DNA of 20,318 nucleotides, from the UHGV virus genome UHGV-0140021; one strand, written 5' to 3'. Positions 2,687 to 20,026 of the stretch are shown one piece after another (the stretch's first letter is position 1; each line of letters starts with the position of its first letter). The notes below the pieces were generated by a model that was not told where the DNA came from, did not search any database, and saw only the letters and a list, made by a program, of their open reading frames with translations. The translations under genes and the position numbers were made by a program. This DNA is from a virus.

Positions 2687-4416
2687 AGAATTAAGAGATC
2701 ATCGTCCGGATCAAGAGATGAGAGGAAATCGCCAGGCTCTTTAAGCATTGCCCGTCCGATCGCCATTATCAGCGCCACCGCGCCGTCGATTTTATTTTCG
2801 TTCTGCTCCTTGATAGGCTTCACAACATCATCGTTCCCCGGCAGATATTTCCCCACCACGTTGCTGATACACCAGCTCATGATCGGGTTACCGTCGTGAT
2901 GAAAACGCCCAGACTCAATGGCTGCTTCCAGCTCTTTCATTGGGTCTGACATATTGGTGTAGTTCTGAACGATAGTGATCGGATTAAGACTTTCATCAGC
3001 CAGATCATGTGAAAGCCCCGTCGCGCCGAATGGGTCAATCGGAGACTCACTGACCGGGTTGAGTTTGTTTGCTGCTTTGGCCTCTTCAAGGATGTAGCGG
3101 TAATCCACTTCAGCGCCATCAGTAACTGTAAGCAGTTCCATTTCAACCCATTTCTGAAATCGCTCCGCAGTACGACGATCTTCATTCTTTTCAACGCTGA
3201 ATACTGTGTCGTAAGGAACCCAGAAGCGGGGAGCAACGCTGTAGTAATGTGTCTTGCCGTCAATTTCTCTGGTGAACAACCGCGCCATACTGTTCATATC
3301 CAGCTTGCGCGCCAGGTCGAAAGACAGAACACATGGCTGTCCTTCGAATTGCTCCAGCGTCAGTGTCTTATCCTCGCAGTTCTGCCAGGAAACCAGGTTG
3401 TAGAAAGCGGCACGGGCTGCAACCCAGATATTGAGGTGTTTGGTTTTAAATACGCCAGCCTGGCGAGCATTATTGATAGCACGCTGTTGCTGGCTTAACA
3501 GAAAGTCACGGTAAACCGAGACACCCATATTCGGGTTGGCCTTCTCAAGCACTTTAGGATCGGTCCAGTCATCCCCCTCGTCGACGGTATATATCACGCC
3601 GAACAATTCCTCATTCGGTACCGTGCCGTTAAGCATCTCAATCACTTCACGCCGTTTGTCGTAGCATGGACCCTCAATGTTGTAACCTGCTGTGGTGATC
3701 GCCCACATCAGCGGTTGTCGCCGCGCCCCCATACCCGTCAGCATTGTGGTGTAGAGCGAATCTGTTGGGTGTTCGTGATACTCGTCAACAATCGCACAGT
3801 GCGGTGAAGCGCCGTCCCCAGGGTTACCAATCAGCGGCTCAAAACGCGCGCCATCTTCTGGCCGGTTCAGGTTGGACGCATTAACTTCAATCCCGAACGC
3901 GTCCACCAGCATCGGGGTGCGCTTACACATCAGACGAGCTGGTCTGAATACTTCCCACGCCTGTTTTTCAGTTGTGGCCCCGGAATATACTTCAGCGCCA
4001 AACTCGTTATCACAGGTAAAACAGTACAGCGCCACACCCGCCGAAATGGCCGATTTCCCGTTTTTACGCGGTATCTCCGTGTAAACCTCGCGAAATCGTC
4101 GAAGCTTCGACCCTTTCTGGACCCAGCCAAAGGCGCAGCACACAATAAACAGTTGCCATGCCTCCAGAGTGATCGGCATCCGCTTGAATGCCCACTCTCC
4201 TTTTGTATGTGGCAACAACTGGATAAATTTCGCGGCCTTTTCTGCCATGTCTTTATCGAAGCGGTAACGAAATTTCTTACTCTTTTCAGCCGCCATGTCA
4301 TCGATATGACGCTGGCAGGCCTGAATAACAAACTGGCACGCCGGAATTTTCCCCCGCACAACGTTGCGGGCGTATTGATTCGCGGCGTTTACGTTGGGGT
4401 ACGATTTCCGGCTCAT
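2683..4416 (-). CDS. Terminase large subunit
   Basis: 577-aa ORF, ATG overlapping the TerS stop (ATGA); size and gene order (TerS-TerL-portal) diagnostic. Confidence 0.9.
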
Positions 4417-7849: not shown

Positions 7850-8680
7850 TTACGCGATATTTATCACATCTTCACTTTTAGTCACCCGATTCAGTTGAGA
7901 GCTTGAATAACTCTCCTCCTGGAAACATTTGGTCACCAGGCTTTCATAGAATGGTTTCCAGCTATAACGCCACGTTCGGTCAGGCAGACTCGGCAACTCA
8001 GAAAAAACACCTCGATAGGCAACCGATGATTTTGGCCTGCTGTATCCCCGACCTTCACAGCGCTTACATTCTTTGTAAACCGGTACGCCCTGCAGTTCTG
8101 TCGCTTTACGGTCAATAGTCTTACCTGTGCCGCCGCACTGGCATCGCTTACTTAACTTTCCTGTGCCATGGCAGCGGGAACATAACGTATGATCAGTGTC
8201 AGTTACATCGCGCTTAACCTCAAAGTCAGATGGTGACTGTCTCAGGTCTTTTGCCCATTGTGGCAATCGCATTGTGTAATGACTTTTAGTCACGGTTTTA
8301 GTAGTTGTAAGCAACCCTTTACCACTACATTTTGGGCATGCCACGCTATCAGCGGCTGATGAGGAATAATCGTTATAGGCAAACCGGGCAAGAATACGCA
8401 TGCAGAGGGGAAACTTTTTCCCTGACGCTTTACGAATGGCCATGGGCGCATGCTCTTTCGCGTACTCCGTTAGCCAAGCTATTGACGCCTCCCTGTCCTG
8501 GCTGCTGATACCAGCTTTGCCCAGAAACATTGCCAGGCCTATCCCCGCATCGGCCTGAGTCATCCCCAGTGCAGCCATTACATCAGTAACCGTCAGTTGT
8601 TCACTGGCTGTCGCTCTGCTGGTATCTGATATGTGCATACCTTTCGGCGCAAAAAATTTCAGTACATTATCCAGGTTCAT
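7850..8680 (-). CDS. Antitermination protein Q-like
   Basis: 276-aa protein with several CxxC zinc-binding pairs (CPKC, CSRC, CQC, CKRC); last gene before the late promoter/terminator and lysis cassette; N-terminus resembles enterobacterial prophage Q proteins (from memory, not searched). Confidence 0.65.
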   Translation of the reverse strand: MNLDNVLKFFAPKGMHISDTSRATASEQLTVTDVMAALGMTQADAGIGLAMFLGKAGISSQDREASIAWLTEYAKEHAPMAIRKASGKKFPLCMRILARFAYNDYSSSAADSVACPKCSGKGLLTTTKTVTKSHYTMRLPQWAKDLRQSPSDFEVKRDVTDTDHTLCSRCHGTGKLSKRCQCGGTGKTIDRKATELQGVPVYKECKRCEGRGYSRPKSSVAYRGVFSELPSLPDRTWRYSWKPFYESLVTKCFQEESYSSSQLNRVTKSEDVINIA

Positions 8681-10384: not shown

Positions 10385-10771
10385 TCAGGCGGCTGCACCC
10401 GCCGGTTCATATCTGCTGATCGTTATCTCTACCCGACCTTTCGGCACTACGGGTCCCCATTCCACCAGCATGCGCTTAATCTGGCTGTCGTCTTCCCAGA
10501 CACCCGCATGCGTCAGCGCGTCAAACAGGGCTTTGTTGTAATTATCGATATCCCGGCGGCGCGCATCCGGCGGGTACAGAGTGATTTCTACCGCTGCCAG
10601 TTCAGTCGATGGCTTCGGGAGACGTCGTAATTGCTCAATGATCGCCACGCAGGCAGCGCTCTGGTATTTACGAGCATCAGCGCTAATGAGGTGACGACCG
10701 GCCAGCGGCCCCTTATTAGGGGCGCGCCAGTACGTGTTCACGCTCGGAGGGAACGGGAGCACAAGTTTCAT
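10385..10771 (-). CDS. rusA: Crossover junction endodeoxyribonuclease RusA (Holliday junction resolvase)
   Basis: MKLVLPFPPSVNTYW... with DARRRDIDN and LFDALTHAGVWEDD motifs closely matching E. coli RusA; ATG overlaps the C5-MTase stop (ATGA); GGAGG SD. Confidence 0.9.
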   Translation of the reverse strand: MKLVLPFPPSVNTYWRAPNKGPLAGRHLISADARKYQSAACVAIIEQLRRLPKPSTELAAVEITLYPPDARRRDIDNYNKALFDALTHAGVWEDDSQIKRMLVEWGPVVPKGRVEITISRYEPAGAAA

Positions 10772-12702
10772 GCCACCTCCTGCTGTTGCACTGCACACAG
10801 TTCCGGAAGATTTGCCTCCACCAGCGCCCTGGCGAATGGTGGTGGTACCGCATTACCGCAGCGGGCTACCTGCTTATCTTTTGCATAGCGATTTCCACGG
10901 TAGTCCTGATCAATAACGTAACCATCCGGGAAGCCCTGCGCTTTGTAGAGTTCATGCGGCTGCAACATGCGCATTCCGATATCAACGATCTGGTATTTAA
11001 CCCCATCGATCGTTACCAGCCATTCATCGTCACTTTCCCCGCAATACGTCTCGAGAAATGTGCGTACCTCACCCACGTGTTGGCCACCAGCAGTGATTGT
11101 TGGCATTGGCACATCAAGGCGTTGCCCGTCGCGGCATGTTCCACGCAGTTTCACCAGATGAGAGGCAACTACCGCATGATGGTCGACAGTGGTCACTGAA
11201 TGCGCGGGTTCATCCATACTGACACCAGGCCCCGTATAGTTACCGCCGTAGTGTTTCGCCAGGAACGCGCTCACCGTCGCAAATTTATTTCCGCCTGCAG
11301 TAACGGTCCCCAGCGGGTTATCCAGTCGCAGCACACGCGGTTCTTGCCCAGGTCGTTCGCCATAACCCATCTGAATCAGCGTAGGCGTTACCGGTTGAGA
11401 TTTACCGCCACCACCAGCGGTGATGGTTGCGCTCGGTTCGTCTGCACGGTGGCCGACGCTGGCCCCAAACTGGCGGGCTATCACTGGCGCAACCAGACAG
11501 GCTCGGGATTGCTTCAGAATGGTATGAGCAGGTTTATCCAGCGGGCGCGGTTTCGCCTGGTATTCACTACCACCATTACCCGCCAGGAATGGCGTCAGTG
11601 CAGCCTCAACAATCCCGAGTGCATGCCCGTTCCCGCCCGGGCGTTTTGACGTGCCAGCGGTTACCGTCGGAACAGGTTCGGTAAGGGGCTGCCCGGTTGC
11701 GCCAGTGCGGAATTTTGTCAGGTGTGGAACGGCTAACGCGTAGCCGAGTTTTTTAGTAATGGTCTGTAATGGCTCATTCAGTGACTGTCCGCGAAAAGCG
11801 TCATACGCATTTTTTGAGCTCGTGTGGTTGCACTTCACAATAAACGGCGACGCACTTTCGATAACAAAGCGCTGTATGCCGCGCGCGATCCGCTTCAGAG
11901 TGTTCTCCGCCAGCGGTTTTTTGCGGTCGAAGATGGACAGGGCCGGAATATTCCAGTCGATACATTCCGCAGCGGTACGCCATGGCATCAGCCTGCCACT
12001 TTGCACCTCCAGAGACTTAGGATCCCCATGGGTAATAGCAGGCCACTGGATTGGGCAACCATCGCAACGCATAACCATGAAGAAGCGTTTGCGGATCGTC
12101 GGCGCGCCGTAATCACACGCACGTAGTTCGCGATAATCAACATCATATCCCAGCCCATCCACCAGCTTTTGTGCCTGCTCGCTACCTCTTTCGATAGACA
12201 GAAACTCACAAACCTCAGCCAGTGCCGGGTGATCAGCAGGAATGCCAGTGGACAGCATGCCGACAAATGCATTGAATGTTTCGCCAGTGCGGGCAGGATC
12301 CGGACGCATTTCATCGGCCAGCAGCGGTCCCCACGTTTTGAACTCTTCCACGTTCTCCAGCATCATCACGCGCGGTCGCTTTGCCAGTGCCCAACGCAGA
12401 ACAATCCAGGCCAGACCGCGTATCTCTTTTTTCACAGGCTTTGCGCCTTTTGCCTTCGAGAAGTGTCGGCAGTCCGGGCTAAACCATGCCAGTCCGACAG
12501 GATGACCTCCGGTGGCGGCTACCGGATCCACGTCAAATACGGATTCACAATAATGCAGTGTGTCCGGGTGGTTCGTCTTGTGCATCGCAATGGCGTTTTC
12601 GTCGTGGTTTATCGCAATATCCACGCTGCGCCCGATCGCCAGTTCAATACCCGTTGATGCGCCACCGCCACCAGCAAAGTTATCAACGATAATCTCACGC
12701 AT
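10768..12702 (-). CDS. DNA (cytosine-5)-methyltransferase, unusually long (644 aa) with a repeated TRD-like region
   Basis: C5-MTase motifs: I DNFAGGGG, IV SPDCRHFS (catalytic PC), VI ENV, VIII TIRKRFF, IX ELYKAQGFPDGY, X CGNAVPPP. A ~330-aa variable region holds six repeats of [DN]-x-P-x-x-T-[IV]-T(-A-G-G). Confidence 0.9.
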   Translation of the reverse strand: MREIIVDNFAGGGGASTGIELAIGRSVDIAINHDENAIAMHKTNHPDTLHYCESVFDVDPVAATGGHPVGLAWFSPDCRHFSKAKGAKPVKKEIRGLAWIVLRWALAKRPRVMMLENVEEFKTWGPLLADEMRPDPARTGETFNAFVGMLSTGIPADHPALAEVCEFLSIERGSEQAQKLVDGLGYDVDYRELRACDYGAPTIRKRFFMVMRCDGCPIQWPAITHGDPKSLEVQSGRLMPWRTAAECIDWNIPALSIFDRKKPLAENTLKRIARGIQRFVIESASPFIVKCNHTSSKNAYDAFRGQSLNEPLQTITKKLGYALAVPHLTKFRTGATGQPLTEPVPTVTAGTSKRPGGNGHALGIVEAALTPFLAGNGGSEYQAKPRPLDKPAHTILKQSRACLVAPVIARQFGASVGHRADEPSATITAGGGGKSQPVTPTLIQMGYGERPGQEPRVLRLDNPLGTVTAGGNKFATVSAFLAKHYGGNYTGPGVSMDEPAHSVTTVDHHAVVASHLVKLRGTCRDGQRLDVPMPTITAGGQHVGEVRTFLETYCGESDDEWLVTIDGVKYQIVDIGMRMLQPHELYKAQGFPDGYVIDQDYRGNRYAKDKQVARCGNAVPPPFARALVEANLPELCAVQQQEVA

Positions 12703-13576
12703 GGGTTACCCCCTGCATGCTGCCAACAAGACCACGCGCAATTGTAATAATTTCGCTGGTGGCCGTTCGTTCCAGCCAGAGTTGATTGATGTTGGCTTTC
12801 AGCTTGTTCTGCTGAGCCTCACTCAATACGTCAACGCCTTCCACCTGGTTAAACACCAGACCAACCTCTAGAGGCCAGATACGTGACTCAGTTTCCGATG
12901 GTATTACTGGTTCCTGGGCTGTCCGCACTGCAATTGTTTGCTCTTTACCAACAGCGAATTGAGCCAGCGCCATAAATTCCCGACCTTTTGCCTCCAGTTC
13001 TGTGCGGTTGATATAGCTGAACCGCTCACCACGCCACGACTTATCGAATACAGCTATGGCACCGGCAAAAAACGCGCTGGTGGGTTTCTGTTTTTCGTCA
13101 GCAGGTACAAACCACACAGGCAGATCGAACCCAATGCGCCCGCGAATGAATACAATGTGATCGGCATCTTCCGGCCACCACGTTTCACTCGGCGCGGCTT
13201 TTATCAGGAATACATAGCGACCGCCCTTCTCGCGCTGGGCTGCTGCGTATTTCATGATGTGCGTCATACCAGTGATCGCCTGTTTCTCGTGGTACTGCGA
13301 ACGGCTATACGGTGGGTTGCCATAGCCAGCGCCACCCAGTTCTGCCAGACGTTCAGACCAGTCCTGCGTCAGCGCGTTATCTTCGGCGGTGTACCATGCC
13401 GGGCATTTCGCGTTGTCGGCGTCAGCAAACAAGTCCAGAACTAATGGACCAAATAGCGCGTTGATCCCCCAAAAAAGCAGATCCGGTGTTCGCCACTGAT
13501 CGCCAACTTCTTTCAATTCGTGGGCTGGTTGGCTACGTAGTTCCGCCAGCGACTGGCAATATTTGTTTAACGTCAT
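12695..13576 (-). CDS. Phage N6-adenine DNA methyltransferase (Dam-like family) with ~110-aa C-terminal extension
   Basis: QWRTP...DLFADADNAKCPAWYT...GNPPYS motifs typical of phage Dam-family N6-adenine MTases; start overlaps the upstream ORF stop and its stop overlaps the C5-MTase start. Confidence 0.8.
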   Translation of the reverse strand: MTLNKYCQSLAELRSQPAHELKEVGDQWRTPDLLFWGINALFGPLVLDLFADADNAKCPAWYTAEDNALTQDWSERLAELGGAGYGNPPYSRSQYHEKQAITGMTHIMKYAAAQREKGGRYVFLIKAAPSETWWPEDADHIVFIRGRIGFDLPVWFVPADEKQKPTSAFFAGAIAVFDKSWRGERFSYINRTELEAKGREFMALAQFAVGKEQTIAVRTAQEPVIPSETESRIWPLEVGLVFNQVEGVDVLSEAQQNKLKANINQLWLERTATSEIITIARGLVGSMQGVTHA

Positions 13577-15344: not shown

Positions 15345-15545
15345 CTACTGTTTAGGGTAAATGTCAGGACGAAGATCAGATTTGCTGATAATCCCAGCAG
15401 TTGTTTCCTCCAGCTTTTTAGCCAAGGAAAAACCTGCCTTTTTGTAGCCATTGAAAACTAAACGCAGGTAGCCAGGCGTGGAACCTACGCTTCCAGCTAA
15501 TTCGCCTTGCTGCTCTTTAGTTAAAGAGTCCCAATACTCTTTCAT
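15345..15545 (-). CDS. Cro-like repressor (66 aa)
   Basis: Small ORF divergent from cI, ATG at 15545 with AGGAGG SD, start overlapped by a 17-bp operator. Assignment is mainly positional. Confidence 0.6.
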   Translation of the reverse strand: MKEYWDSLTKEQQGELAGSVGSTPGYLRLVFNGYKKAGFSLAKKLEETTAGIISKSDLRPDIYPKQ

Positions 15546-15633
15546 AATATGTACCTCCTGTGTACATATTACACGAAAGAAATGAACCCACAAGGTACTT
15601 GTACCATAGAGGTACACATTGTTTAATTTGCTG
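15546..15633. promoter_or_regulatory. Immunity control region (oR-like): divergent promoters and 17-bp operators TGTACC-N5-(G/T)GTACA
   Basis: Operators at 15550-15566 (TGTACCTCCTGTGTACA) and 15600-15616 (TGTACCATAGAGGTACA), extra GTAC half-site at 15595. Candidate -10 TAATAT for cro on the minus strand and TTTAAT (15622-15627) just upstream of the cI ATG. Confidence 0.6.
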
Positions 15634-16308
15634 ATGAAAACTATCCAGGAAATCAGGCGATTAAACGCCCGAAAATTGAGAGATGGTGTTGGGGGTAATA
15701 GCTACTTCGCTAACATGATCGATCGTGAACCTACACAAACCAGCCGGTTTATGGGTGAAGGTGCCACCAAAGGTATTGGTGACGCTATGGCAAGGCATAT
15801 CGAAAAATGTTTTGACTTGCCTCAAGGTTGGCTAGATACCGAACATCAAACTACCAACATTGCTAAATCACCCGACGTTTCAGACGTTAAAAGATCAATT
15901 ACGATGGTCCCGGTTATATCCTGGGTGCAAGCCGGAGCATGGACGGATGCTGGTTATGCAGAGGTAGATTTGAGTAGTGTAGAAACATATCCTTGTCCCG
16001 TTCCGTGCGGGCCAATGACTTATATCTTACGCGTCATTGGTGATTCAATGATCGATGAGTATCGTCCTGGCGATATGATTTTTGTAGATCCAGAGGTTGC
16101 AGCTTCTCATGGCGATGATGTTATTGCTTTAATGCATGATTCTGGCGAAACGACGTTTAAACGATTAATAGAAGATAGTGGCGAAAAGTTTCTTAAAGCT
16201 TTAAACGCCAACTGGCCAGAGCCATATATTAGGATCAATGGTAATTGCTCGATTATTGGCACCGTTGTTTTCTCAGGAAAACCACGACGGCACAGGCATA
16301 AGCCTTAA
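15634..16308 (+). CDS. cI-type prophage repressor with LexA-like S24 peptidase domain
   Basis: C-terminal domain has the GDSM serine motif and downstream lysine (TFKRL); divergent from cro across the operator region. ATG 15634 chosen (ORF track starts at TTG 15619); no SD, consistent with a leaderless or short-leader transcript. Confidence 0.85.
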   Translation: MKTIQEIRRLNARKLRDGVGGNSYFANMIDREPTQTSRFMGEGATKGIGDAMARHIEKCFDLPQGWLDTEHQTTNIAKSPDVSDVKRSITMVPVISWVQAGAWTDAGYAEVDLSSVETYPCPVPCGPMTYILRVIGDSMIDEYRPGDMIFVDPEVAASHGDDVIALMHDSGETTFKRLIEDSGEKFLKALNANWPEPYIRINGNCSIIGTVVFSGKPRRHRHKP

Positions 16309-16317
16309 CCCATCATC

Positions 16318-16345
16318 ACAAACCTGCTTCGGCAGGTTTTTTTAT
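16318..16345 (+). terminator. Rho-independent terminator of cI
   Basis: AAACCTGC-TTCG-GCAGGTTT followed by TTTTTTT, immediately after the cI stop. Confidence 0.85.
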
Positions 16346-16347
16346 CC

Positions 16348-16380
16348 TTGACAATGTACCCTCAAGGTACATAATGTACC
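16348..16380 (+). promoter_or_regulatory. pL-like early promoter with overlapping operators (oL)
   Basis: TTGACA (16348-16353), 16-nt spacer, CATAAT (16370-16375). Operator TGTACCCTCAAGGTACA (16355-16371) sits between -35 and -10, plus overlapping GGTACATAATGTACC (16366-16380); same half-site as the oR sites. Confidence 0.65.
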
Positions 16381-16661
16381 TATACGAAACAGCGAACAGG
16401 CAGGACGCCCACGAAGTAGCCGCCGGTGACGTATGAATAACCGGATGATTCGCTGACAGGTGTCTTCGGGAGGGGTTACGGGCTGGAGTGACTACCAGCG
16501 TCGACAGCTCTATCCGACGAAACGGAACCGTCTAACCCGCGGTTGTCGGTGAAAAGTACCGTAGGGATGCCAGCTAGTCACTGGCCCCCGCCCGAAGATA
16601 CCTACCACCGCGCCTGATGTGGTTAAAAGCAGGCTAAAGCAATAACAAGTAACTCCATGTT

Positions 16662-16712
16662 CTGGCGGACCGGTGTTTTCCCGTGTATTTCCGGTAACCG
16701 CCAGCCTTTTTC
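16662..16712 (+). terminator. Intrinsic terminator inside the early-left leader
   Basis: CTGGCGGACCGG (16662-16673) pairs with CCGGTAACCGCCAG (16691-16704): 12 bp with a 2-nt bulge and 17-nt loop, followed by CCTTTTTC. Confidence 0.6.
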
Positions 16713-16842
16713 AGATCACAACATGAAAGCGCACTCCTTCACTTACCAGTTATGGGTGACAGGTGTGAAACAAGCGGAGTGCGCTTCCAGTTGAGTATGG
16801 AGAAAGTTCGGCGGTGGCAGCCGCCTTAACGAGGGTAAAACC

Positions 16843-17214
16843 ATGAGTAATGACCGCATGACCGTAGTGCCAGATTTTCTTGGCGAACTGGATGCCGGCG
16901 TGTTCATGAACAAAATCGCGGCAGCACTTAACACCACCGCGCTTGGCGTTCTGAACAACGGCAACAAAGGCAAAGTAGTCCTCACCTTTGATTTTGAGCG
17001 CATGGGTAATTCCGTTGAAGAGAAGCGCGTCAAGATCAAGCACAAGCTGAACTACAGCACCCCAACACCGCGTGGTAAAGCCTCCGAAGAGGACACAACC
17101 GAAACCCCGATGTGGGTCAACAAAGGCGGGAAGCTCACCATCCTGCAGGAAGATCAGGGTCAGCTGTTCGGGATCACTGGCGCGGTGGATGGAAAGCTTA
17201 AAGCGGCTCAGTGA
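16843..17214 (+). CDS. Hypothetical early protein (123 aa), first gene of the early-left operon; possibly YfdP-like
   Basis: ORF with GAGGG SD 9 nt upstream; first gene after the leader; size and context similar to CPS-53 yfdP (recall only). Confidence 0.55.
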   Translation: MSNDRMTVVPDFLGELDAGVFMNKIAAALNTTALGVLNNGNKGKVVLTFDFERMGNSVEEKRVKIKHKLNYSTPTPRGKASEEDTTETPMWVNKGGKLTILQEDQGQLFGITGAVDGKLKAAQ

Positions 17215-17270
17215 TCCGCAACAACAAACTCACTGATACCACTTTGATCATCAGTTAATAAGGAATTTTT

Positions 17271-18098
17271 ATGTCTCAGTTAGACAGCGGTACCTTCAAG
17301 CAGGTCAAAGACCTGGTTCTTTCCGGTTATCACCTGAATGATATTCATGGCCTGGCTTGCCCGACCGCATTACTGCCAGAGGGTACTGGCGTTGAAAGCC
17401 TCGAGCGCTTTTCTCTGGAACGTTTCCGCTTTCGTGGCGAAATGACCACAACCAGTATTGACGACTTCGCACGTTATTCTAAAGGTTACGCCAGCGACAG
17501 TGAACCAGCTCGTTGCTTCATTGACGCTGACAACATGACCGCCCGTTCAGTGTTCAACATCGGCACCCTGGATAATCCTGGTCACGCCGATAACGTTGCT
17601 TCAATCACCCTGAAGAAAACCGCCCCGTTCCGCGCGTTACTGCAGATCGATGGTCAACGTCTGAAACAAAAGCAAATTGCTGAATGGCTGGAAGACTGGA
17701 GCGATTACCTGCTGGCGTTTGATGCTGATGGCAATACGATGCAGATTTCCCAGGCGGCTCAGGCTGTGCGTCGTATCACTATTCAGCAAGCAACACAGCA
17801 GGACCATGAAACTGGTGATTTCGCTGGTAAAAAATCGCTGATGCAAAGCGTTGAAGCAAGCAGCAAAGACGTAATGCCTGTGGCGTTCGAGTTCAAATGT
17901 ATGCCGTATGAAGGCCTGGGCGAACGCCGCTTTAGCTTGCGTAACAGCCTGCTGACTAGCGATGAACCCTGCTTTGTTCTGCGCATTGTCCAACTTGAAG
18001 CTCAGGAAGAAGCGATCGCCAACGAATTCCGCGATTTGCTGATCAGCAAGTTCGAAGGCGAATCAGTGGAAACTTTCATCGGTAACTTTAAAGCCTAA
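17271..18098 (+). CDS. YfdQ-like protein (DUF2303 family), 275 aa
   Basis: AAGGAA SD; length nearly identical to E. coli CPS-53 YfdQ (274 aa) and followed by an HD-domain gene as in the yfdQ-yfdR arrangement. Homology inferred from size and context, not searched. Confidence 0.55.
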   Translation: MSQLDSGTFKQVKDLVLSGYHLNDIHGLACPTALLPEGTGVESLERFSLERFRFRGEMTTTSIDDFARYSKGYASDSEPARCFIDADNMTARSVFNIGTLDNPGHADNVASITLKKTAPFRALLQIDGQRLKQKQIAEWLEDWSDYLLAFDADGNTMQISQAAQAVRRITIQQATQQDHETGDFAGKKSLMQSVEASSKDVMPVAFEFKCMPYEGLGERRFSLRNSLLTSDEPCFVLRIVQLEAQEEAIANEFRDLLISKFEGESVETFIGNFKA

Positions 18099-19564: not shown

Positions 19565-20026
19565 ATGCAGATTTCACCAATCACCTTAAAAGTTGCCAAA
19601 GAATTTGTGGCGAAACATCACCGTCACAACAAACCGCCAACAGGACATAAATTTAGTATCGGTCTGAAAAATTCTGATGGTGAATTGATTGGCGTAGCTA
19701 CCGCAGGAAGACCAATAGCCAGGAATTTCGATGATGGCCTTACTCTGGAGGTTAACCGTACTTGCACAACTGGAGAGCGCAACGCTAACAGCGCTCTTTA
19801 TGGAGCAATCTGGCGGGCAGCAAAGGCTATGGGTTATCAGCGCTGCATAACCTACACCCAAGCGGATGAATCCGGGGCATCGCTGCGCGCGGCTGGTTTT
19901 GTCCGGGTTAAGGAACTTCCCGCGAGAAAAGGGTGGGCAGCATCAAGCGTTGCACTGAAAGATAAGCGAGACCCGGTAGGAAATGGTGGTGTTACACGCG
20001 TTCTTTGGGAAATAAGGAGAAGGTAA
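19565..20026 (+). CDS. Hypothetical protein (153 aa)
   Basis: ORF starting immediately after the upstream stop (GGGGGAGTGA ATG); no confidently recognised domain. Confidence 0.5.
   Translation: MQISPITLKVAKEFVAKHHRHNKPPTGHKFSIGLKNSDGELIGVATAGRPIARNFDDGLTLEVNRTCTTGERNANSALYGAIWRAAKAMGYQRCITYTQADESGASLRAAGFVRVKELPARKGWAASSVALKDKRDPVGNGGVTRVLWEIRRR

Follow-up and report, generated by a model that had tools for sequence, protein, structure and literature searches.

The DNA considered here is a 20,318-nucleotide (nt) stretch of the virus genome UHGV-0140021 (hereafter the window), which contains the immunity region of an SfV/ST64B-like lambdoid prophage. Between the pL-like promoter of the window and its first early-left gene lies a leader of about 460 nt, which is a structured RNA free of open reading frames (ORFs) and built as a mosaic of three modules, A, B, and C, with helices backed by covariation. 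The widespread and invariant element within this mosaic is a 64-nt three-way-junction RNA, motif A, which lies upstream of everything described in an earlier, sequence-only reading of this DNA and was overlooked there. Motif A is a real RNA that falls outside the put RNAs (by sequence and fold), outside the nut sites (by boxA, boxB, and N), and outside every Rfam family; it is a phage leader RNA that lies close to the promoter, has a new fold, and is very widely distributed. By analogy with the phage elements that occupy the same slot, we tentatively favour its role as a cis-acting processive antiterminator of the early-left operon.

Structure and Conservation of Motif A

Motif A is formed by three helices, P1, P2, and P3, joined by the strands J2/3 and J3/1 (Table 1), and is described by a gapless alignment of 61 distinct sequences. 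The proposed partners are paired in 95.8% of the alignment cells, as compared with at most 43% when they are slid against each other; 10 of the 14 pairs are altered on both sides, and none of 500 shuffles reaches the observed covariation score. The same fold is given independently by RNAalifold. Covariation is strong in P1 and P3, with three or more versions of the P1 sequence being known (AGCGAA/UUCGCU, GUCAUC/GAUGAC, and CCACC/GGUGG). The unpaired J2/3 strand CACGAAGUAGC, the GGCAUAYGAA part of the P3 loop, and AUGA of J3/1 are invariant or nearly so, and about 22 contiguous junction and loop nucleotides are unchanged in phages of Escherichia, Salmonella, Shigella, Yersinia, Pantoea, Pectobacterium, Klebsiella, Xenorhabdus, and Aeromonas, which suggests recognition by a conserved host machine.

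A covariance model built on motif A assigns 90 bits to the window copy. Rfam 15 searched at the gathering threshold gives zero matches in the entire window, and a permissive search (up to E 10) of positions 16250-16900 returns spurious matches only, while a relative with a type B2 module (see below) returns none. A hammerhead-like core was also considered for motif A and rejected on the lengths and sequences of the junction strands, with the Rfam models being silent.

Genomic Position and Distribution of Motif A

The pL-like promoter of the window is the sole promoter-like site in positions 16200-17300; it lies directly 3′ of the terminator of the cI-like gene, is overlapped by an operator palindrome, and is repressor-controlled. 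The transcript is predicted to start at about 16382-16384. The sequence-only reading had already described a near-consensus promoter with an operator at this place, as well as the first credible gene about 460 nt further on, and both statements agree with the present data (Table 1). The same gene order (repressor, terminator, promoter, motif A, early-left genes) is found in ST64B, SfV, and ZF40. More generally, a sigma-70 promoter (at least 9 of 12 consensus positions, within 70 nt) is present in 108 of 212 unique regions upstream of motif A versus 2 of 179 control segments, and its -10 element mostly ends 12-16 nt before P1, which puts the start of motif A at about +6 to +10 of the transcript. 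These promoters carry many different operator sequences, indicating that motif A belongs to the early-left module and not to the immunity module.

The first ORFs downstream of motif A fall into 39 unrelated clusters, and eight representatives checked match PHROGs of unknown function or none; in this set, no conserved downstream-encoded protein partner was found, so motif A is likely to work independently of its neighbour. The sequences after P1 are wholly different between subfamilies. In the window, the first start codon lies about 390 nt after motif A, and the distance from motif A to the first ORF is 5-90 nt in many relatives. No N is annotated among the window genes, though a Q-like protein is present, and mEp237 is likewise without an annotated N. 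In HK639, an annotated putL precedes a kil-containing operon, while in mEp237 it is motif A that precedes a homologous kil (40% identity, E = 3e-14).

The boxA of nut sites reads CGCTCTTA / GCTCTTTAACAA, and in the window the 600 nt that follow motif A are free of GCTCTT[TA]A. In an SfV-like subset of relatives (11 loci), the region about 20-60 nt after motif A contains a hairpin AAGCGCC-CUACAG-GACGCUU with a perfect boxA GCTCTTTAAAAA directly downstream of it, some 31 nt from motif A, in a boxB-boxA order resembling that of the rrn leaders.

In GenBank, blastn detected motif A in about 50 phages, with 80-97% identity; these infect Escherichia, Salmonella, Shigella, Yersinia, Pantoea, Citrobacter, Pectobacterium, Klebsiella, and Aeromonas, and T5-like Providencia phages carry the motif as well; ST64B, SfV, SfII, SfIV, ZF40, mEp237, mEp460, and a T5-like Providencia phage are among the named carriers. 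The query matches 1370 of 5426 complete E. coli genomes, i.e., about one quarter, mostly over motif A. The invariant 22-mer GGCAGGACGCCCACGAAGTAGC is present in more than 120 IMG/VR contigs, among which the motif takes 106 distinct forms, and in a one-genome-per-species collection it marks 92 stretches, nearly all from Enterobacterales. The highest number, four separate copies of the exact 22-nt core, has been observed in Xenorhabdus sp. TCT-1, and several other Xenorhabdus have two or three. None of the records searched annotates motif A as an RNA, though a few overlay it with "hypothetical protein" calls. No description of motif A was found in the full-text literature searched for the motif sequences, put-like RNAs, ST64B/SfV antitermination, and ST64B small RNAs (sRNAs), the list of put-like prophage sequences by King et al. 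2011 being outside this coverage.

A diverged copy of motif A (72 bits, 2977-3056, P2 loop AAGGAAA) resides in the virulent T5-like Providencia phage vB_PreS_PR1. It is located in the terminal repeat, between divergent genes and ahead of the pre-early A2/A1 DNA-transfer genes. The pre-early genes of T5 are transcribed by the unmodified host polymerase.

Mosaic Build of the Leader and Modules B and C

The full leader has a minimum free energy (MFE) of -170 kcal/mol as compared with -153 +/- 6 kcal/mol in shuffles (z = -2.7), below all 100 of them. Between the promoter and position 16843 there are only ORFs of 20-45 codons, and the longest (16657-16794, 45 codons) runs across the terminator and has its ATG changed to CTG in most relatives. 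Neither the ORFs of the window nor the alignment of relatives revealed a conserved small ORF in the leader, there is no N-like ORF between the promoter and the terminator, and gene-finder scans detected no tRNA- or tmRNA-like gene. The sequence-only reading had depicted the leader in just these terms, as densely structured, devoid of an N-like gene, and holding only short ORFs, one of which spans a terminator; of the tests it had named, folding and covariation support a structured RNA, and no conserved small ORF was found.

The modular build is evident from a three-way comparison of the window, ST64B, and E. coli MEI4O1-23. Positions 16390-16457 are common to all three; 16458-16603 are shared by the window and ST64B only, with MEI4O1-23 having an ORF in the same place; and 16604-16842 are common to the window and MEI4O1-23 and, in part, to ST64B. 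The ORF of MEI4O1-23 (2598-2963) encodes a 121-aa ClpX C4-type zinc-finger protein (PHROG 20296, unknown function) and stands exactly in place of module B, with motif A on one side and the same spacer and terminator on the other; in lambda, this position is held by N.

Module B was found in 39 unique homologues with two unrelated interiors enclosed by the outer helix (of 17 bp in the window), type B1 (23 unique, including the window and ST64B) and type B2 (15 unique), whose fold is comparably elaborate. In type B1, 97.3% of cells are paired versus at most 51% in slid controls, and 10 pairs are altered on both sides. Covariation is also seen in the hairpins CUGG/CCAG and GCCAG/CUGGC, whose loops are complementary, and a pair formed between these loops is either U-A or C-G; kissing loops are probable, as judged from the alignment. 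An inner hairpin with the loop YYAACCC recurs across lineages, as does a helix CCGAC/GUCGG, represented in other lineages by CUGGUG/CACCAG, CCACG/CGUGG, or CAGC/GCUG. In nearly all cases module B is situated 64-800 nt downstream of motif A, and a conserved terminator nearly always follows it within 20-70 nt. Motif A is far more widely distributed than module B and often directly precedes ORFs.

These data amend the picture of this region drawn from the sequence alone. The long-range helix proposed there (16463-16475/16586-16598) is present and extends further on the outer side (Table 1), and the inner hairpin AACCG/CGGTT is found as well. At the same time, the helix thought to be nested within it (AGTGACTA/TAGTCACT) is better explained by the loop-loop contact between the two covarying hairpins, and the hairpin CGTCG/CGACG is peculiar to the window variant, since relatives keep CCGAC/GUCGG with compensatory variants. 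A boxA-like sequence AGCTCTAT (16506-16513) is not kept in module B homologues, where it becomes AACTCAGC, CGCTCACC, or GGATCACT. Finally, the functional unit can hardly be centred on 16463-16712, as had been supposed, given the narrow distribution of module B and its replacement by protein-coding genes in close relatives.

Module C starts with an A-rich, weakly structured spacer that is near-identical in more than 20 relatives, regardless of whether module B or an ORF lies upstream. It is followed by a GC-rich hairpin with a U-tract, conserved in about 30 relatives and having the features of an intrinsic terminator: its 7-bp base (CUGGCGG/CCGCCAG) shows no variation, the upper part of the stem is variable yet paired, and the U-tract comprises 4-7 residues. 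The sequence-only reading was thus correct in placing a terminator here, albeit an atypical one, whose loop measures 17 nt and whose U-tract is set off from the stem by 2 nt; a simple terminator scan missed it because of the long loop. The short U-tract (4-5 U after CC) together with the long loop makes incomplete termination probable.

The long hairpin after the terminator, of which an 11-bp core had been noticed before, is covarying: in relatives, unrelated interiors of 60-200 nt are enclosed by the same flanks, CACAAC/GUUGUG, and by the closing pairs AAG[C/G/A]GCA / UGC[G/C/U]CUU. In three loci (L020, L167, and L232), the variable interior contains the tRNA T-arm-like strings CTGGTTCGATTCCAG and CGTTCGATTCG, and in L187 a D-arm-like GTAGCTTAATTGGTAGAGCG follows the hairpin; ARAGORN called no tRNA in L020 and L187. 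The last structure of the leader, the short GGCGG/CCGCC hairpin just before the Shine-Dalgarno sequence, is present as predicted and conserved in ST64B and E. coli MEI4O1-23.

Motif A as a Candidate Antiterminator

The reading that we put first, with some reserve, is that motif A acts in cis as a processive antiterminator occupying the nutL/putL slot, being structurally unrelated to put. According to this model, upon loss of the repressor, host RNA polymerase would start at about 16382 and transcribe motif A first. The motif would fold on the nascent transcript and act in cis on the elongating polymerase, either directly or via host factors, rendering it resistant to termination. The modified polymerase could then cross the untranslated leader of about 460 nt, which would otherwise be an obvious target for Rho, and pass the conserved terminator in module C, thereby allowing expression of the early-left operon (yfdP, yfdQ, and beyond). 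Motif A would thus play the role of lambda nutL plus N and of HK022/HK639 putL by means of an unrelated RNA fold, while modules B and C would represent exchangeable structured cargo or processing elements inside the protected leader.

Such a function is favoured by the location of motif A in the nutL/putL slot, by the lack of an annotated N, and by the homologous kil found behind putL in HK639 and behind motif A in mEp237. The invariant unpaired nucleotides, the absence of a fixed protein neighbour, the long untranslated leader with a conserved terminator ahead, and the placement of motif A at the head of the pre-early A2/A1 operon in a T5-like Providencia phage point in the same direction. 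In the window subfamily, this terminator is conserved between motif A and the operon.

Several observations weigh against antitermination. A strict scan of up to 2 kb downstream of motif A detected sense intrinsic terminators in 27 of 80 non-redundant loci (35 in total), while the controls gave 81 antisense terminators in the same regions and 84 sense terminators in the upstream regions, so that motif A is not generally followed by predicted intrinsic terminators. The detector uses discrete hairpin lengths, is limited to intrinsic terminators, and misses the window's own one, so the counts are underestimates, though the same detector was applied to the controls. Given this lack of enrichment, the case for antitermination rests on the analogy and on the window's own subfamily. 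Furthermore, each phage has one copy of motif A, and the covariance model finds no second copy in the window, including a putR-like one on the pR side; it also detects nothing in HK022, HK639, or lambda, which makes the analogy one of position and not of homology. The folding energy of motif A alone is unremarkable (z = -1.5), and P2 is unvarying in the alignment, so that covariation neither supports nor contradicts this helix. Lastly, two conserved GGA motifs (CAGGACG in a hairpin loop and GGAUGA) would also fit a site for a CsrA-type protein.

The closest parallel to motif A is provided by the put RNAs of HK022 (putL and putR) and HK639 (putL). In HK022, putL lies just downstream of pL, and put consists of two tandem stem-loops with a triplex (PMC9378689). 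The features in common with motif A are a cis RNA of about 65-70 nt positioned just after pL in lambdoid phages without an N gene, apparently no need for a dedicated protein, a copy on the left side only (as in HK639), and the homologous kil genes in the operons of HK639 and mEp237. The differences are no less clear. Motif A is a three-way junction closed by P1, whereas put is a pair of tandem stem-loops; antitermination and binding to the zinc-binding domain of the β′ subunit have been demonstrated for put, whereas for motif A both polymerase binding and antitermination are proposed by analogy. The covariance model finds nothing in the HK022 loci (with putL reconstructed for the comparison) or in the whole HK639 genome, including putL annotated in its record at 34187-34312, and blastn of motif A yields no match to either phage. 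The position just after pL, with P1 at about +6 to +10 in a lambdoid phage devoid of N, is the only property of put or nut elements recognized in motif A. Homology to put was rejected for want of any relation by BLAST or the covariance model, the shared "CGAAC" being part of a P1 strand whose sequence is changed by covariation in other subfamilies. Thus, motif A is not a put RNA, though it may work in a put-like way. The sequence-only reading had suggested an antitermination element analogous to nutL or put; as a function, this remains the best explanation, now attached to motif A, but the element belongs to neither family. The HK639 record also contains an "M3-like RNA" annotated at 37910-37969 on the pR side, between a cII-like gene and the next gene.

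With lambda nutL plus N, motif A shares the slot: nutL and motif A each come first in the pL transcript and precede terminators. Unlike lambda, the window lacks boxA and boxB, and no ORF before 16843 is N-like, longer than 45 codons, or conserved. The lambda pL leader was also tested as a possible relic of motif A and dismissed: the identity is restricted to 9 nt (GCAGGACGC) and is non-significant, and the covariance model is silent on lambda. Another related case is the rrn leader with boxB-boxA-boxC and the Nus factors, where an RNA signal guards a long untranslated transcript from Rho without a phage protein, and the motif A relatives with a hairpin and boxA GCTCTTTAA about 31 nt downstream resemble it further; the window, however, is without boxA, and motif A is unrelated to boxB and boxC.

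Alternative Roles

The alternative that survives best, although we regard it as rather unlikely, is that motif A serves as a docking site for a trans-acting protein that controls elongation, Rho access, stability, or translation. The protein might come from the host, with CsrA, Hfq/ProQ, and a Nus complex of the rrn kind as candidates, or from the phage, encoded elsewhere. Leaders bound by CsrA are expected to have two GGA motifs 10-63 nt apart, at least one of them in a hairpin loop; in motif A, P2 (GGC-AGGAC-GCC) exposes CAGGACG in its loop, and GGAUGA lies about 40 nt downstream at the boundary of P3 and J3/1, both being invariant. The consensus for a CsrA dimer fits two GGA sites with a spacing of about 40 nt. 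GGA is retained even in the P2 loop AAGGAAA of the Providencia variant. The CsrA-binding hairpins of the CsrB repeats and of the flhDC 5′ leader resemble motif A in that a GGA is exposed in a small hairpin loop, another GGA lies about 40 nt from it, and the element stands at the very 5′ end of the transcript. However, the GGA motifs account for only about 8 of some 30 invariant nucleotides, most of which lie outside them, and in the second GGA, G59 and G60 are paired in P3. For a Nus-type complex, the argument comes from the relatives with a perfect boxA and from mEp237, which carries motif A without an annotated N and originates from a collection selected as Nus-dependent (PMC11893012); the Nus dependence of mEp237 may stem from its early system or from its Q system, and the window has no boxA. 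Moreover, no conserved protein is encoded beside motif A.

It is unlikely that the stretch running from promoter to terminator (about 16382-16711, about 330 nt) is a discrete non-coding RNA (ncRNA) gene expressed on induction, in which motif A and module B would form a functional RNA, possibly trimmed at the long helices and acting in trans on a host target, with the operon receiving only what leaks through the terminator. The complex, covarying module B with its probable kissing loops, its nearly constant position downstream of motif A, and the conserved terminator close behind it are in line with this idea, and there is a precedent in the homologous early-left leader of K-12 Rac, where the 5′ untranslated region (UTR) of kilR gives rise to the Hfq-associated sRNA KilS (PMC8175672). 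On the other hand, motif A is far commoner without module B, often directly before ORFs; protein-coding genes replace module B in otherwise near-identical leaders; termination is probably partial; and a promoter scan of 16700-16842 found no promoter of their own for the downstream genes. KilS itself is a different RNA, as its match to the window is limited to 18 nt and is non-significant; besides, Rac contains no motif A according to the covariance model. A longer ST64B-type leader (L003, 3350-3510) and K-12 Rac (L244, 8260-8480) share the short segments TGTGGTGAATGCGGCTCAGCGCACGCGG and ATTGCTGTGTGAAGTCTTG..GGCG, which include the core of KilS; this part is not present in the window.

Still less probable is that motif A acts as a 5′ UTR element that stabilizes the early-left mRNA against 5′-end-dependent decay or tunes translation without any effect on elongation. 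Its constant location at the extreme 5′ end and the short distance to the first ORF in many relatives are compatible with such a role. At the same time, P1 is preceded by an unpaired tail of about 6-10 nt, and an unpaired 5′ tail is poor at blocking 5′-end sensing by RNase E and RppH; the roughly 30 invariant unpaired nucleotides would be superfluous for a simple protective hairpin, and the first start codon of the window is far away. It is highly improbable that motif A is a riboswitch-like aptamer through which a small molecule would gate the operon. Its three-way junction, in which the junction nucleotides are invariant and the helices covary, does resemble known aptamers; however, no expression platform is conserved (subfamilies have unrelated sequences after P1), P2 is only 3 bp long, and no Rfam riboswitch matches up to E 10.

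Features of the Window

The coordinates of the leader elements and of the adjacent genes are collected in Table 1. The names YfdP and YfdQ are taken from the RefSeq annotation of the closest E. coli relative (MEI4O1-23). The minus strand further encodes cII-like, O-like replication, methyltransferase, RusA, and lysis proteins. Inside the first early-left gene, a minus-strand terminator-like hairpin (16941-16917) of 11 pairs is followed by ATTTTGTT; judging from its sequence, it could stop transcription converging on pL. In addition, the early-left operon encodes a Mom-like DNA-modification protein (19565-20026), and the pR operon contains two large DNA methyltransferase genes (10768-13576).

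Table 1. Positions of the leader RNA elements and neighbouring features in the window.
Feature	Position	Strand	Properties
Motif A, three-way-junction leader RNA, 64 nt	16391-16454	+	alignment, covariation, covariance model
Motif A, P1	16391-16396 with 16449-16454		6 bp
Motif A, P2	16399-16401 with 16407-16409		GGC/GCC, loop AGGAC
Motif A, P3	16423-16427 with 16440-16444		5 bp, 12-nt loop GRCRUAYGAANN
Motif A, J2/3 and J3/1			J2/3 CACGAAGUAGCCG in the window; J3/1 AUGA
Module B, type B1, structured RNA of ~146 nt	16458-16603	+	homologue alignment, covariation, z = -4.4
Module B, outer helix	16458-16475 with 16586-16603		12+4 bp, GGUGUCUUCGGG-AG-GGGG with CCCC-G-CCCGAAGAUACC
Module B, hairpin CUGG/CCAG	16483-16498		loop complementary to the GCCAG/CUGGC loop
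Module B, hairpin GCCAG/CUGGC	16569-16585		
Module B, inner hairpin AACCG/CGGUU			loop UCUAACCC
A-rich spacer, weakly structured	16604-16661	+	ACCACCGCGCCUGAUGUGGUUAAAAGCAGGCUAAAGCAAUAACAAGUAACUCC; MFE -7 kcal/mol, z = +1.1
Intrinsic-terminator-like hairpin	16662-16711	+	stem 16662-16704, 17-nt loop, then CCUUUUU; -19.5 kcal/mol, z = -2.35
Long hairpin after the terminator	16719-16793	+	CAAC..GUUG flanks; 11-bp core 16727-16737/16777-16787; -32.8 kcal/mol, z = -3.4
Hairpin adjacent to Shine-Dalgarno sequence	16810-16825	+	GGCGG(U)-loop-(G)CCGCC
Shine-Dalgarno sequence GAGGG	16831-16835	+	5 nt after the GGCGG/CCGCC hairpin
Q-like antiterminator gene	7850-8680	minus	
cro-like gene	15345-15545	minus	
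cI-like repressor gene	15619-16308	+	matches PHROG 4 repressor family
Intrinsic terminator of the cI-like gene	16320-16339	+	8-bp stem, then TTTTTATCCTT
pL-like sigma-70 promoter	16348-16375	+	TTGACA-16-CATAAT, 11/12 consensus positions
Operator palindrome	16356-16370		GTACC-N5-GGTAC, overlaps the promoter
First early-left gene, YfdP family	16843-17214	+	ATG at 16843, 123 aa, PHROG 204
YfdQ-family gene	17271-18098	+	PHROG 210

Significance

The put RNA serves as the model of how a nascent RNA reprograms RNA polymerase, and to our knowledge it is the single family for which phage processive antitermination by RNA only has been described. It is possible, and we suggest it with caution, that motif A represents a second, structurally independent class of polymerase-modifying antiterminator RNA, present in about one quarter of complete E. 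coli genomes and in well-known phages, and that module B is a new kissing-loop RNA of about 150 nt which replaces a protein-coding gene in the protected leader. If so, an unrelated fold in the same slot would mean that this solution has evolved more than once; it would also explain expression of the early-left genes (kil, recombination, excision) in many lambdoid prophages lacking N, and it would provide a new polymerase- or host-factor-binding RNA for structural work. Whatever the mechanism, motif A and module B are well-supported RNA families absent from Rfam, for which reason annotation pipelines either miss them or place spurious "hypothetical protein" calls over them.

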